Origin: an uncultured bacterium
GTDB taxonomy: Bacteria; Bacillota_I; Bacilli_A; RF39; UBA660
Assembly: GCA_947169285.1 (NCBI GenBank)
Contig: CAMVPB010000001.1
Location: forward strand, 4,273 to 68,272
Direction of reading: 5' to 3'
Length of the DNA stretch: 64,000 nucleotides
In this document: positions 17,993 through 26,608 of the stretch, piece by piece
Layout: every line of letters starts with the position of its first letter
How positions within the stretch are numbered: the stretch's first letter is position 1
Made by a program: the position numbers and the translations under genes
The notes under the pieces: generated by a model
Seen by the model: the letters and a program-made list of their open reading frames with translations, nothing else
Told to the model about the DNA's origin: nothing
Databases searched by the model: none

Positions 17993-19267
17993 TTATTTTC
18001 CACTATATACAACTTGTATCTTAGCTTTAAACATTTTATCTTGATCATAATTTTGTGGTTCATTAATTCCTTGAAGCTTAAAATCAATATCATAAGTATG
18101 AGTTTGACCAGGTGCAATAAAAATTTTATCTAAGAATATTCCATCTTTAAATGGTGCAGTTATAAAATCAATTGATTTACAATTATTTTTGCAAGTTACT
18201 TTATATTTAAAATTGCCACTTGCAAATTCATTCGTAACATCTTGCCATTTTATAGCATACATAACATAATATGGACTCATATTGGTTACTGTAAAATGCT
18301 TAGTAGGAATTTTTTTACTATCTTCCATATCATCTGGTAATATATCTTTTACTACTACATCTGATTTATCTTTATAAACTATTTCAAGTTTAGCACTATG
18401 ATTTATAACTCTAGAATTACCAATTATTTTAGTACTACCATTTTGGGAAATTATAACTTTAGACCAATTATCAATACAAAATTCATCACAAACCCCATCG
18501 TCATCTGTATCGCAATGCAAATCACATATTTTATCCCCGTCCATATCAAGATTTAAATCAGCTTTTCCATCATTATTTGTATCCAAATCAAGATCAGGTT
18601 TTCCATCTCCATCTATGTCTAAATTAGTATCTGGCCATCCATCATTATTTGTATCACAGTTTCTAATACATACTCCATTACTGTCCTTTACATTAGTCGG
18701 ATTTAATGTATCATCACCAATTACTACATTAAATATTTGTTCTCTATTTCCTTTATAATCTATATTAACATCAGGTTTATCATCTTTATTTAAATCTATA
18801 TTAATTTCAGGTTTTTCATCTTTATTAATGTCTATATTAATATCAGCAACACCATCTCCATCTATATCTTTATTTAAATCTAATAGTTTTATATAGTTAA
18901 AAGCAGAATAAGTGGCACCTAGTATTGTGAAAAGTAAAGCACCTAATAGTAAAATTAAAAACCACAATGCAACTCTCTTTTGAAATTCAAAAGTCATTAT
19001 GTCATCTTTTTTACTAACTAATAAACCAAGTGGAAGATGTATATCATTATCTTCTTCATCACAAGAAAGTTTTAAGCACTTTAAAACGTACTTGTTATCA
19101 ACTTCAAGTTCTTTAGTACCGGTATATATATCATCTTCAAGAATTTGTCTTAAAACTTCTGCTTGTAATTTAGCATCTAGTTTGTTAAACTTATCAAGTT
19201 TTAATTCGCCATCTTTGTATACCTTATTTTTTTCTAAAAATACTTTATTTTTACTATCCATAAGCAT
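17993..19267 (-). CDS. membrane-anchored protein: cytoplasmic N-domain, TM helix, acidic Ca-binding-type repeats, C-terminal TasA/camelysin-like domain
   Basis: TM helix (ALWFLILLLGALLFTILGA). At least six D-x-(D/N)-x-D-G-x-x-D motifs (DIDGDGVAD, DTNNDGWPD, DIDGDGKPD, DTNNDGKAD, DMDGDKICD, DTDDDGVCD). The C-terminal ~150 aa shares HFTVTN.. and THTYDIDFKL..QNYDQDKMFKAKIQVV with the three paralogs at 24446-26608. Confidence 0.6.
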   Translation of the reverse strand: MLMDSKNKVFLEKNKVYKDGELKLDKFNKLDAKLQAEVLRQILEDDIYTGTKELEVDNKYVLKCLKLSCDEEDNDIHLPLGLLVSKKDDIMTFEFQKRVALWFLILLLGALLFTILGATYSAFNYIKLLDLNKDIDGDGVADINIDINKDEKPEINIDLNKDDKPDVNIDYKGNREQIFNVVIGDDTLNPTNVKDSNGVCIRNCDTNNDGWPDTNLDIDGDGKPDLDLDTNNDGKADLNLDMDGDKICDLHCDTDDDGVCDEFCIDNWSKVIISQNGSTKIIGNSRVINHSAKLEIVYKDKSDVVVKDILPDDMEDSKKIPTKHFTVTNMSPYYVMYAIKWQDVTNEFASGNFKYKVTCKNNCKSIDFITAPFKDGIFLDKIFIAPGQTHTYDIDFKLQGINEPQNYDQDKMFKAKIQVVYSGK

Positions 19268-19333
19268 ATTTTCCTACTCTACATATAATTATACAATACA
19301 GTTAAAAAAAATACAATTTTATTTTGTATTTTT

Positions 19334-20437
19334 TTATTTTAACAATTCTTCACATTTTCTTAAATTATCTATTTGCTCTTGAACGAATTTAGCACATATT
19401 TTCTTCAATTCTTTTTCACGCTTTTTACGATTTTTTTGAACTATTTTAAACTGTTCTTTAAGCATTTTTGTAAATGCTTTTTCGCTACCACCAATTTCAT
19501 CTAAATAATCTTCGATTAAGTTCTTAATAAATGCGACATTATATAAATTTCCACTTACCTTTGGATATTTTGAGTTAAGCATATTTAAAGCATCATATCC
19601 TAAAAAATAACCAAAATTATATAAATTTTTAACTTCATCATTATCACTTATAACTTCTGTTTTAGTGGATATTTTAGGATCTATTATATTAAATTGTTCA
19701 AGATAATCCCAAAGTTCCGCAGCTTTCTTAAAATTAGGCTCTTTTAATATTAAGTTAGTTTTTCTAAGCGGGCTTCTTACAGGTACTACTGAAACTAATG
19801 ACTTTATAAAATCAGTTGTTTTAAATCCATCTAACACCACTTTAATAGCCTTTATTCTATTTGGCATACTTTTTTCTTCATTTTCAACAATTGGTATTTC
19901 ATGACGCCTATTATTTTCAAGAGTTAAATTTATTTTAACCTTATCATACTTAACTTTTGTCTCACCTTCAAAATTAACTTTTCTATCACATTGATAATAA
20001 GACCCATCATCTCCGAAACGCTCTAATTGATTATCTATAAACAAACTAAGAGTATTAATTAATGTGTATATAAATCTATTTTCATATATATCAATTGTGT
20101 CTTCCTTAGTAATATTTAATACCTTTTTAGGCATTATGTCACCATTTTCCTCAACATCTTCTATAAAGTTACTATGTTGAGCTAAATGTCTTACTGTTTC
20201 AGTAGTTATTCTCTTAGATTTTTCAACGTTTATTACTTCTTCTTCTTGAACAAGAAATCTTTTTGGATTTCTAATAATAGTATCTAAATAAGGAAGACAT
20301 TCTTCTACTTTATCTACCCATGAAAAATCCACTAAAACTTCTTCTTCATTAGAATCAATCCATATTTTAGATTTAGTTTTAGCTAAAAACATATTAAGTT
20401 CATTATTATTAATATTATTTACGTAATCTTCTTTCAT
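19334..20437 (-). CDS. McrC-N-terminal/DUF2357-like partner protein with no visible nuclease motif
   Basis: Sits 24 nt downstream of the McrB-like ATPase gene. Contains IYENRFIYTLI and NLILKEPNFKKAAELW blocks reminiscent of McrC/DUF2357. I could not find a PD-(D/E)xK pattern in the C-terminal helical ~100 aa. Confidence 0.45.
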   Translation of the reverse strand: MKEDYVNNINNNELNMFLAKTKSKIWIDSNEEEVLVDFSWVDKVEECLPYLDTIIRNPKRFLVQEEEVINVEKSKRITTETVRHLAQHSNFIEDVEENGDIMPKKVLNITKEDTIDIYENRFIYTLINTLSLFIDNQLERFGDDGSYYQCDRKVNFEGETKVKYDKVKINLTLENNRRHEIPIVENEEKSMPNRIKAIKVVLDGFKTTDFIKSLVSVVPVRSPLRKTNLILKEPNFKKAAELWDYLEQFNIIDPKISTKTEVISDNDEVKNLYNFGYFLGYDALNMLNSKYPKVSGNLYNVAFIKNLIEDYLDEIGGSEKAFTKMLKEQFKIVQKNRKKREKELKKICAKFVQEQIDNLRKCEELLK

Positions 20438-20461
20438 GAGTATCCCTCTTTCTCTTTTTTA

Positions 20462-25809: not shown

Positions 25810-25878
25810 ATTAATACCTCTCTATCATAATAAGTATACAAAAAATAAATGAAATTTACAATAGAAAATTAACCAAAT

Positions 25879-25900
25879 AAAAAAAGCAGGCTAGCCTACT
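25879..25900 (-). terminator. intrinsic terminator after paralog 1
   Basis: On the minus strand, AGTAGG-CTAG-CCTGCT (6-bp stem, tetraloop) followed by TTTTTATTT. Confidence 0.6.
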
Positions 25901-25927
25901 CTTTTTAATGCTTTTTTTATTTTTATA

Positions 25928-26608
25928 CTATGGAATTTGTACATTATATTGGTCTGTCCATTGTGTCCATCCAGATGCGCCATCCCAAGTACGAAGACCT
26001 TCTTCATCAGCTACAACAACTTGAATAGTACCATGATAACTTTTACCTTGTAAGTAATTTTGAGCACTACCAGTTTCCTTTAATAAAGCTTTAAAAGTCC
26101 AAGTATGTGATGCGCTAGGTCCAGTTAAAGTACCTGTTGCAATTGCTTGACCGCAACCATCAGTTGATGGCATATCAGCATTACTTACTGGTGAACCAAC
26201 ACCAGTACCATTACCAGTCAAGCTGTAAACAAATTCATGTTTTGAATCTGCTGTTGCTGCTGCTGCTAAGTCTTTAGTAGCATCATTATTATTGTGTGCA
26301 TCAGTATTTGTGCATAAATAAATTTGATATACAACTGGAGAGCCTTCTTTAGTGTTTGCAGAATTTGTTACAGTAAATGTTTTAGTATCTGTCCATCCTG
26401 GATAAGCGTCTGTAATCTCAATACCAGCAGTAGTTCCATCAAATGTAACATCACCAACTTGAGCAGTAGTCACATGAATACTTGAAGCTGTTTCGTTACC
26501 TCTTGCTGTAATTGAGAAGTAAGCGAATGTAGCTCCAATGATTGCAACTAATAATGTAGCAATACCTACAACTGATAAGAAGATACTTTGTCCTCTATTG
26601 TTTTCCAT
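25928..26608 (-). CDS. TasA/camelysin-like secreted protein with SipW-type signal peptide (paralog 1, likely major subunit)
   Basis: GATFAYFS signal end, AYPGWTDTKTFTVTNSAN and HTWTFKALL..QNYLQGKSYHGTIQVVV. Strong AAGGAGGT RBS, its own promoter and terminator, and visibly less AT-rich codon usage than its neighbours. Confidence 0.75.
   Translation of the reverse strand: MENNRGQSIFLSVVGIATLLVAIIGATFAYFSITARGNETASSIHVTTAQVGDVTFDGTTAGIEITDAYPGWTDTKTFTVTNSANTKEGSPVVYQIYLCTNTDAHNNNDATKDLAAAATADSKHEFVYSLTGNGTGVGSPVSNADMPSTDGCGQAIATGTLTGPSASHTWTFKALLKETGSAQNYLQGKSYHGTIQVVVADEEGLRTWDGASGWTQWTDQYNVQIP

Follow-up and report, generated by a model that had tools for sequence, protein, structure and literature searches.

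A conserved gene block in an uncultured Bacilli genome links SipW-cognate secreted proteins to a membrane-tethered McrB-like GTPase and may encode a surface-fibre machine

The DNA analyzed here is a stretch of 64,000 nucleotides (the window; positions 4,273 to 68,272 of contig CAMVPB010000001.1, assembly GCA_947169285.1) from an uncultured bacterium of the RF39 lineage UBA660. The interval 17993-26608 of the window is filled by nine consecutive, co-oriented open reading frames (ORFs) on the minus strand, as the initial annotation of this DNA had described; they are called g1 to g9 in the order in which they would be transcribed. With a probability of about 0.6, the block is a dedicated surface-fibre machine of the kind named CoCoPALM, with a nuclease-free nucleoside triphosphatase (NTPase) derived from McrBC restriction systems as its cytoplasmic engine, while any specific mechanistic step, drawn by analogy, deserves much less confidence. 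The most likely function is the assembly or anchoring of surface fibres driven by nucleoside triphosphate (NTP), not defence, by a mechanism that we infer.

The linkage of the genes was surveyed by mapping iterated profiles of the nine window proteins on 85 loci, of which 82 were distinct and 44 reached at least 5 kb to either side of the gene pair g7-g8 (full-flank loci). Homologs of the GTPase g7 and its McrC-like partner g8 were adjacent in 85 of 85 loci. A protein with the domain of g1-g3 and g9 was present in 81 of the 82 distinct loci and lay within 3 kb of the pair in 44 of 44 full-flank loci, while the signal peptidase gene sipW (g4 in the window) was found within 5 kb in 31 of the 44. 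The density of sipW per 10 kb was 1.19 within 5 kb of the pair and 0.20 in the outer flanks, compared with 3.43 and 0.45 for the subunit family of g1-g3, which amounts to a 6- to 8-fold enrichment near the pair. Nearly all of these genes were co-oriented with the GTPase (86 of 88 for sipW, 243 of 248 for the subunit family). The neighbourhood survey was thus strongly positive in both Bacilli and Clostridia, and the earlier proposal that the NTPase pair sits inside a unit with the SipW and fibre genes held up. Neither of the outcomes named in advance as refuting it, an NTPase pair occurring apart from sipW and TasA-like genes or a g9 C-terminal domain unrelated to the paralogs, was seen in this clade.

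The same counts bear on the possibility that a SipW/fibre operon merely lies beside a degenerate McrBC remnant. Terminator-like hairpins that set g1, g2, and g4 apart from the genes that follow them and a frameshift in g6 would fit such a chance neighbourhood. It is contradicted by the adjacency in 81 of 82 distinct loci over two classes, by the enrichment, and by the near-constant co-orientation, and the differing flanks of related loci argue against copies of one mobile element. The invariant catalytic motifs of g7 and the paralogy of g9, at the far end of the block, to g1-g3 also speak against it, and chance adjacency was rejected as very improbable.

Two arrangements were found among the loci. 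In close Bacilli relatives, the four-gene cassette g6-g7-g8-g9 was invariant and a g9 homolog followed the g8 homolog in every locus of this type, with sipW and the small subunits adjoining the cassette in the window and in loci L024 and L001. In Clostridia and other Bacilli, the order was subunits-sipW-GTPase-McrC-like protein-subunits(-sipW), and nearly all loci beyond the close Bacilli clade had sipW directly upstream of the GTPase. Accessory content differed by subtype. In L001, a SipW catalytic domain was fused to a multi-pass membrane domain of ~250 residues (15281-16438, 385 amino acids (aa)) and was followed by a DUF5305 protein (16455-17531), while other loci carried a conserved protein of ~308 aa upstream of the g6 homolog.

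Loci of this kind were named in a census of ~34,000 McrBC systems by Bell, Makarova, Wolf, and Koonin (eLife 2024;13:RP94800), where CoCoPALM denotes a McrB-like GTPase tethered by transmembrane and coiled-coil segments, together with a McrC homolog, and linked to signal-peptidase or pilus-assembly genes. The mention takes up two sentences and defers the analysis to a later paper. The GTPase is described there as fused to an FtsB-like domain that is made up of transmembrane and coiled-coil helices, the motif NxD is found in all GTPases of that branch, “usually followed by E or a second D”, and the McrC homolog “usually” has a coiled coil as well (eLife 2024;13:RP94800). Independently of the present analysis, the association was recorded as “pilus assembly linked to McrBC” (PMC11090510). 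Judged by these published features, the locus in the window is a CoCoPALM member: it has a McrB-like NxD GTPase with an N-terminal transmembrane helix and coiled coil, an adjoining DUF2357 partner, and signal-peptidase genes nearby, and the McrC homologs of its Clostridia relatives carry long coiled coils. Two reservations apply: g8 is short (367 aa) and ends in one long helix instead of a coiled coil of 400 residues, and the FtsB/FtsL homology of the N-terminus of the g7 family was not significant here. A literature search found no follow-up on CoCoPALM and no work linking McrB-like proteins with SipW or TasA, so that the locus belongs to a kind that has been named and whose mechanism has never been studied. 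The initial annotation had held that the system would be new under either of its two readings, fibre machine or defence; the association itself had already been named in 2024. New here are the SipW-cognate, distantly TasA/camelysin-like subunits, the anchor paralog with a cytoplasmic domain, the predicted catalytically dead EAL-fold protein g6, the nuclease-free McrC, and the four-gene core of Bacilli. The CoCoPALM paper mentions no such subunits, no g9 anchor, no EAL-fold g6, and no g6-g7-g8-g9 cassette.

The GTPase g7 (20462-21958, 498 aa) is a McrB-like AAA+ protein of the NxD clade. A profile of ten homologs matched the E. coli McrB structures with an expect value (E) of 1.8e-7 over ~180 residues, in agreement with the family first assigned to it, and a library scan gave weak AAA_5 matches. 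The Walker A (GISGTGKTS), Walker B (LDEMN), and signature (GT(I/A)NNDDS...DKVYDRA) motifs were invariant in the g7 family. The N-N-D-D of the signature aligned without gaps with the N-H-D-E (GTANHDETT) of relatives with coiled coils that are encoded on plasmids of Deinococcus and Polaromonas. A comparison limited to E. coli McrB would also allow NxxD as a reading of the motif. The protein starts with a hydrophobic segment; its transmembrane helix lies at ~53-80, its coiled coil at ~82-126, and its GTPase domain at ~190-498. As the basic stretch KRRIKYKK follows the helix, the GTPase domain is predicted to be cytoplasmic by the positive-inside rule. The stretch 82-126 was heptad-like and had weak matches to coiled-coil families, while no DNA-binding family matched the N-terminus in library scans. 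In three of five N-termini of the g7 family that were examined, the Pfam family DUF6040 came near its threshold on the first ~90 residues (E 3e-4 to 9e-3; best 20.7 bits against a threshold of 23.4; for example residues 3-95 in L058, 9986-11518), and this uncharacterized family may share the membrane module.

Relatives of g7 were widespread. The word filter let through more than 8000 proteins, of which the 120 best were ~500 aa long and 56-93% identical. In a scan of one genome per GTDB species, at least 575 species with confirmed g7 relatives were found, which belonged to uncultured gut Bacilli (metagenome-assembled genomes labelled Bacilli or Tenericutes) and to Clostridia, among them Ruminococcus, Oscillospiraceae, Acutalibacteraceae, and Christensenellaceae. 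The identity of g7 between Bacilli and Clostridia was 50-62%. Between L001 and the window, g7, g9, g8, and g6 were 62, 42, 35, and 26% identical, respectively, which fits a motor under strong constraint with fast-diverging partners. One g7 homolog of 646 aa (P0014, L005 10001-11941) repeated ~150 residues of its GTPase domain in an internal duplication and stood next to a McrC-like protein of 848 aa; the duplication could be real or an assembly artefact.

The partner g8 (19334-20437, 367 aa) is McrC-like, matching DUF2357, the N-domain of McrC, with an E of 2.6e-12 and no other family. An AlphaFold2 (AF2) model built from a 68-sequence alignment reached a pLDDT (predicted local distance difference test) score of 79 and showed the DUF2357 part as beta-hairpins and helices. 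Residues 190-367 were modelled as helical with a single strand and a final helix of 48 residues (319-366), and g8 is therefore predicted to lack a PD-(D/E)xK fold. No nuclease was found in the family library, by Foldseek, or in a profile search of the Protein Data Bank (PDB). Foldseek of the model returned no McrC and nothing at E <= 1e-3, while the g8 profile matched designed helical proteins only among the PDB sequences. Homologs from Clostridia were 700-850 aa long and consisted of the DUF2357 region and a K/E-rich coiled coil of ~400 residues; no nuclease, HEPN, or other effector domain was found in g8 or in these long homologs. Family scan, model, and Foldseek together bore out the earlier description of a McrC-like protein without nuclease.

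Compared with E. coli McrBC, a GTP-dependent type IV restriction system (PDB 6HZ4, 6UT6, and 7VSR), the pair shares the AAA+ core of the GTPase, in which Walker A, Walker B, and a signature asparagine/aspartate motif are present, as well as the McrC N-domain partner. It differs by the membrane tether, the motif variant, the missing DNA-binding N-domain in g7, and the missing PD-(D/E)xK domain in g8. Closer are the CoCoNuT-type coiled-coil McrBC systems (predicted RNA-targeting type IV restriction), which have the NxD motif followed by D or E, ~34-40% identity in the GTPase domain, and a DUF2357 partner that is often without an active nuclease. These systems, however, have long soluble coiled coils without a transmembrane tether, carry extra nucleases, helicases, or other ATPases, and occur in plasmid or defence contexts without sipW or secreted subunits.

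This ancestry is the best support for a defence role, in which a membrane-acting anti-phage or abortive-infection module would have arisen from a CoCoNuT-type McrBC, the surface paralogs would sense or decoy phage, and the GTPase pair would signal inward. The g7 family lies in the NxD, CoCoNuT-like branch, and g7 matched the PADLOC defence-candidate model PDC-M26A with an E of 4.6e-40. Its closest relatives outside the clade were ~34% identical coiled-coil GTPases of 800 aa with DUF2357 proteins of 630-705 aa on Deinococcus and Polaromonas plasmids, which lacked sipW and sat with other large ATPases; these plasmid-borne relatives belong to a different, defence-type group. Against defence stand the lack of an effector domain in g8 and its long homologs and the fact that the other eight proteins of the block matched no PADLOC model. 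The level of identity over two classes, the presence in at least 575 species, and the fixed synteny are unlike patchy, fast-evolving defence genes. The flanks are housekeeping genes (YfhO, a PcrA-like helicase, a penicillin-binding protein (PBP), and RecX) whose synteny is kept in close relatives, with no defence island. The g7 family was also nearly absent from phages (two weak matches), and no full-length match above 60% identity was found on plasmids; on these grounds, a phage or plasmid origin of this clade was rejected. Defence, one of the two readings put forward at first, is therefore improbable, and the fibre machine is the better reading of the block.

The secreted part of the block begins with g1 (25928-26608, 226 aa), the candidate major fibre subunit, and its paralogs g2 (25183-25809, 208 aa; 34-38% identical to g1 in two alignments) and g3 (24446-25054, 202 aa), which aligned with both and was matched by the family profiles. 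Each of their signals closes with G(A/L)T(F/Y)A(Y/F)F (GATFAYFS in g1). The gene g4 (23754-24443, 229 aa), whose start is 2 nt from the g3 stop, encodes a SipW-type (archaeal/endoplasmic reticulum-type) signal peptidase I. It scored 84 bits against TIGR02228 (cut-off 51.85), the family expected from the first reading, and 88.8 bits against the Bacillus SipW equivalog, under the cut-off of 190. Its sequence has the SPSM, THR, and KGD boxes, a C-terminal transmembrane segment, and an acidic tail. By sequence, g1-g3 are thus subunits secreted by way of SipW-cognate signals, for which g4 is the fitting signal peptidase. Homologs of the subunit family across the loci carried such signals as well (GATFAYF, GLTFAYF, and TATFAWF), which shows that the family matches were not profile drift.

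The likeness of the mature domains to known fibre proteins was weaker. Against the Pfam family Peptidase_M73 (camelysin/TasA), g1 reached an E of 2e-4 and 21.7 bits and g2 an E of 1.7e-3 and 18.7 bits over profile positions 20-180 of 196, both under the cut-off of 22.5. TIGR04088, the SipW-dependent-type signal, weakly matched 4 of 31 family members (best E 0.0011), while the TapA and BsaA models matched two and one of the 31, respectively. Family scans gave no significant match for g3, g5, g6, and g9. By sequence, the TasA/camelysin label of the initial annotation is weakly supported, and the safe description of g1-g3 is that of SipW-cognate secreted proteins that are distantly camelysin/TasA-like.

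The last gene, g9 (17993-19267, 424 aa), encodes a membrane-anchored protein with an N-domain of ~95 aa, a transmembrane helix that ends in the SipW-signal-like GATYSAF, Asp-rich repeats (~130-265), and a paralog domain (285-424). In BLASTP, residues 285-419 matched g2 45-190, the whole mature domain, with an E of 9e-8, and g9 matched g3 with an E of 6e-6. A profile of the small paralogs, from which the g9 family had been left out, matched g9 with an E of 1.1e-7, and the paralog-profile match ran from the transmembrane helix (~aa 96) to the C-terminus and skipped the Asp-rich insert. An hhalign comparison of the g9 C-terminal family with the 151-sequence paralog alignment gave an E of 0.072, which was put down to poor alignment. 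Because of the BLASTP and paralog-only profile matches, g9 is taken as a g1-g3 paralog with a cytoplasmic N-extension of ~95 residues and a DxDGDG-type insert; the motif similarities between the two ends of the block that had been pointed out earlier are present. Orthologs of g9 keep [GA]ATYxG at the outer end of the transmembrane helix, followed by LNxDxDGDG repeats. The Asp-rich repeats (DIDGDGVADINIDINKD..., CDTNNDGWPDTNLDIDGDGKPDLDLDTNNDGKADLNLDMDGD) resemble calcium-binding DxDxDG loops, contain paired cysteines, and are conserved in orthologs, while no Pfam family reached significance on them.

Between the secreted and the GTPase genes lie g5 and g6. The ORF annotated as g6 (22072-23094) has 340 aa and had been regarded as an orphan, while its relatives, including the 99%-identical P0242, have 378 aa. 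The shorter length is due to a frameshift near position 22090, where frame 2 ends in ...AIVQRIYE and a stop, and frame 0 goes on with REFMNSNKGN...LGLEEK and a stop. The restored tail is identical to the C-terminus of the 99%-identical relative and extends the gene to 21960-23094, with its stop at 21960, 1 nt before the g7 ATG. As judged from the protein comparison, the frameshift is consistent with a 2-nt deletion. The ORF thus exists as first annotated and is a frameshifted member of a 378-aa family, one with a predicted fold.

The AF2 model of P0242 (pLDDT 88.3, predicted template modelling score 0.84) consisted of an N-terminal helical domain and an EAL-type (beta/alpha) barrel. In a Foldseek search of the PDB, the top ~40 matches of this model were all EAL domains, with E down to 3e-4, a probability of 1.0, and target-normalized template modelling scores up to ~0.5; they included PA0575, Bd1971, RocR, FimX, LapD, and MorA. 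At the sequence level, there was no Pfam EAL match and the g6 profile found nothing among the PDB sequences, so that the EAL assignment comes from structure alone. None of the catalytic, metal-binding, or cyclic di-GMP-binding residues (EAL Glu, Asn, ExxE, DD, Lys, Glu, and Gln) was conserved in the 49 members of the g6 family, and the strand positions expected to hold the EAL motifs were variable. Only five positions reached 80% conservation, namely Y8, Y19, L161, Y201, and position 119, where 81% of members have Asp and the reference has Asn. On the model, g6 is read as a cytoplasmic, degenerate EAL-like barrel and a catalytically dead adaptor, while binding of cyclic di-GMP is possible but unsupported. 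A g6 homolog stood directly upstream of g7 in 51 of 85 loci, and no GGDEF motifs and no extra sipW or subunit copies were found when the window was searched for them.

The single-pass membrane protein g5 (23173-23682, 169 aa) had no family match in library scans, and a homolog occurred in one of the 85 loci only. Its position is taken by a 165-aa gene in the relative whose g7 is 88% identical and by a gene for an 803-aa glycine-rich protein in the one at 79%. The protein is lineage-specific and was found only in the closest relatives.

A further alternative is an envelope or division machine, in which the FtsB/FtsL-like segment would target the GTPase to the divisome or to sites of wall synthesis, the cassette would act on a wall-spanning g9, and sipW and the subunits would be dispensable neighbours. 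Cassettes without sipW within 10 kb, which made up 13 of the 44 full-flank loci, fit this idea, as do PBP and YfhO genes near some loci and the very high conservation in small genomes, which suggests a core function. The segment is called FtsB-like by Bell et al., and here the N-termini of g7 homologs gave matches to FtsL (E 0.06-0.09), FtsL_2 (E 0.008), and DivIC (E 3.9), none of which was significant. The alternative is further weakened by g9, which is paralogous to the SipW-cognate subunits and has retained the SipW-signal-like motif, by the position of sipW directly upstream of the GTPase outside the close Bacilli, and by large proteins with SipW-type signals near several of the loci that lack sipW. 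It is judged unlikely, although it ranks above defence.

With regard to known fibre loci, the block resembles tapA-sipW-tasA of B. subtilis and sipW-bsaA-bsaB-bsaC of C. perfringens in the placement of a SipW peptidase beside paralogous SipW-cognate subunits and in the presence of an accessory anchor-like paralog, so that g9 may play the part of TapA. Polymers of BsaA have been reported to be membrane-anchored (PMC11580942). The known operons differ in that they contain no NTPase, the window subunits are too divergent for the Pfam and NCBIfam thresholds, and the cytoplasmic N-domain and Asp-rich repeats of g9 are not known in TapA. The resemblance to type IV pili and type II secretion is a functional analogy only and consists of membrane-anchored subunits, a dedicated peptidase, a cytoplasmic NTPase at the membrane that is predicted to be hexameric here, and an EAL-fold accessory. 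The degenerate EAL regulator FimX was among the structural matches of g6, but g6 keeps no residues for cyclic di-GMP binding or catalysis. There is no homology to type IV machines: the NTPase is McrB-like and not PilB/GspE-like, the peptidase is SipW-type and not PilD, and the subunits are predicted to be beta-rich and are not type IV pilins. Library scans found no PilB/GspE ATPase, PilC platform, or PilD peptidase among the nine proteins.

By analogy with the solved McrBC structures, g7 would form a membrane-tethered hexamer with a finger of g8 in its pore, and GTP hydrolysis would move g8. Since the ring would be held at the membrane by six stalks of transmembrane helix and coiled coil, the movement could reach the outer face of the membrane by way of g9's cytoplasmic N-domain or of the anchors with which uncleaved subunits sit in the membrane. 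At the outer face, cleavage by SipW and insertion of subunits at the fibre base might be controlled or powered; alternatively, the fibre might be anchored or remodelled on g9. In g9, the Asp-rich repeats are probably a stalk that calcium stiffens and that passes through the wall, and g6 would act as an adaptor or regulator of the GTPase. Such a machine would functionally resemble that of type IV pili and be built from unrelated parts. More tentatively, the McrBC-derived GTPase could be the engine of a separate class of Gram-positive filaments, in which it assembles, anchors, or retracts SipW-processed, TasA-like donor-strand fibres through g9. This would be a new NTP-driven pilus machine, unrelated to the type IV, sortase, and chaperone-usher machines and shared as a core-genome feature by many uncultured Bacilli and Clostridia of the gut.

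Several points weigh against the fibre machine. The 13 full-flank loci without sipW within 10 kb were all of the g6-g7-g8-g9 type, and the nearest relatives outside the clade are the defence-type coiled-coil McrBC systems on plasmids. The Pfam scores of g1 and g2 fell below the cut-off, and Peptidase_M73 weakly matched only 2 of the 31 subunit-family members. In hhalign, the close-paralog family matched B. subtilis TasA (query sequence checked against PDB 8AUR and 5OF1) with an E of 7.5e-4, a probability of 25%, and 75 N-terminal columns only, which hold the signal and ~50 residues from the start of the mature part, with the motif PGD..TK.F...N among them. The paralog-family profile found neither TasA nor camelysin among the PDB sequences. 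The frameshift in g6 may be a real mutation that impairs this copy or an assembly error, and the function of all members is deduced from sequences and models. To our knowledge, the TasA fibres of B. subtilis assemble without an NTPase, so that a need for one here would call for an explanation.

Transcription adds another such point. Terminator-like hairpins on the minus strand occur just after the g1 stop (25878-25907, a 13-pair stem followed by a T run) and directly after g2 (25166-25184) and g4 (23742-23768), and seven terminator-like sites were found in the region compared with 1.5 expected from shuffled sequences. The block may therefore comprise several transcription units and is perhaps not one operon, so that its unity, as first proposed, holds for the conserved linkage and perhaps not for transcription. 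The arrangement suggests that the subunit genes are transcribed more strongly than the machinery, with attenuated read-through from the abundant subunits into the machinery genes. Promoter-like matches were as frequent as in shuffled sequences (73 and 72, respectively), and no promoter conclusions were drawn for this reason.

The G+C content was ~25% across the whole window and the block showed no compositional break. Divergently from g1, a YfhO-family membrane protein of 840 aa is encoded on the plus strand (26741-29263, E 8.8e-163), as is also the case in L024, L089, and the 88%-identical relative. The nearest relatives (g7 88 and 79% identical) retain the block in full, the divergent YfhO gene included. 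Just downstream of g9 lies a Bro-N/ORF6N-type gene (16980-17774, minus strand). In L088, the relative at 79% identity, an ORF6N gene (4171-5040) separates the g8 homolog from the g9 homolog, and in the 88%-identical relative such a gene is ~10 kb away on the other side of the locus; it looks like a small gene of mobile or phage origin whose place at the locus shifts.

If the proposed coupling exists, the motor of a restriction enzyme has become a membrane machine that builds or holds surface fibres, and TasA-type fibres would not always be self-assembling. The locus would also allow a defined test of how GTP hydrolysis of the McrBC type does mechanical work where DNA plays no part. For a system that so far has only a name in the literature, it supplies a list of parts. 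Because of its presence in at least 575 species and its unusually conserved GTPase, the system is likely to matter for the attachment, aggregation, or host interaction of its mostly uncultured carriers.

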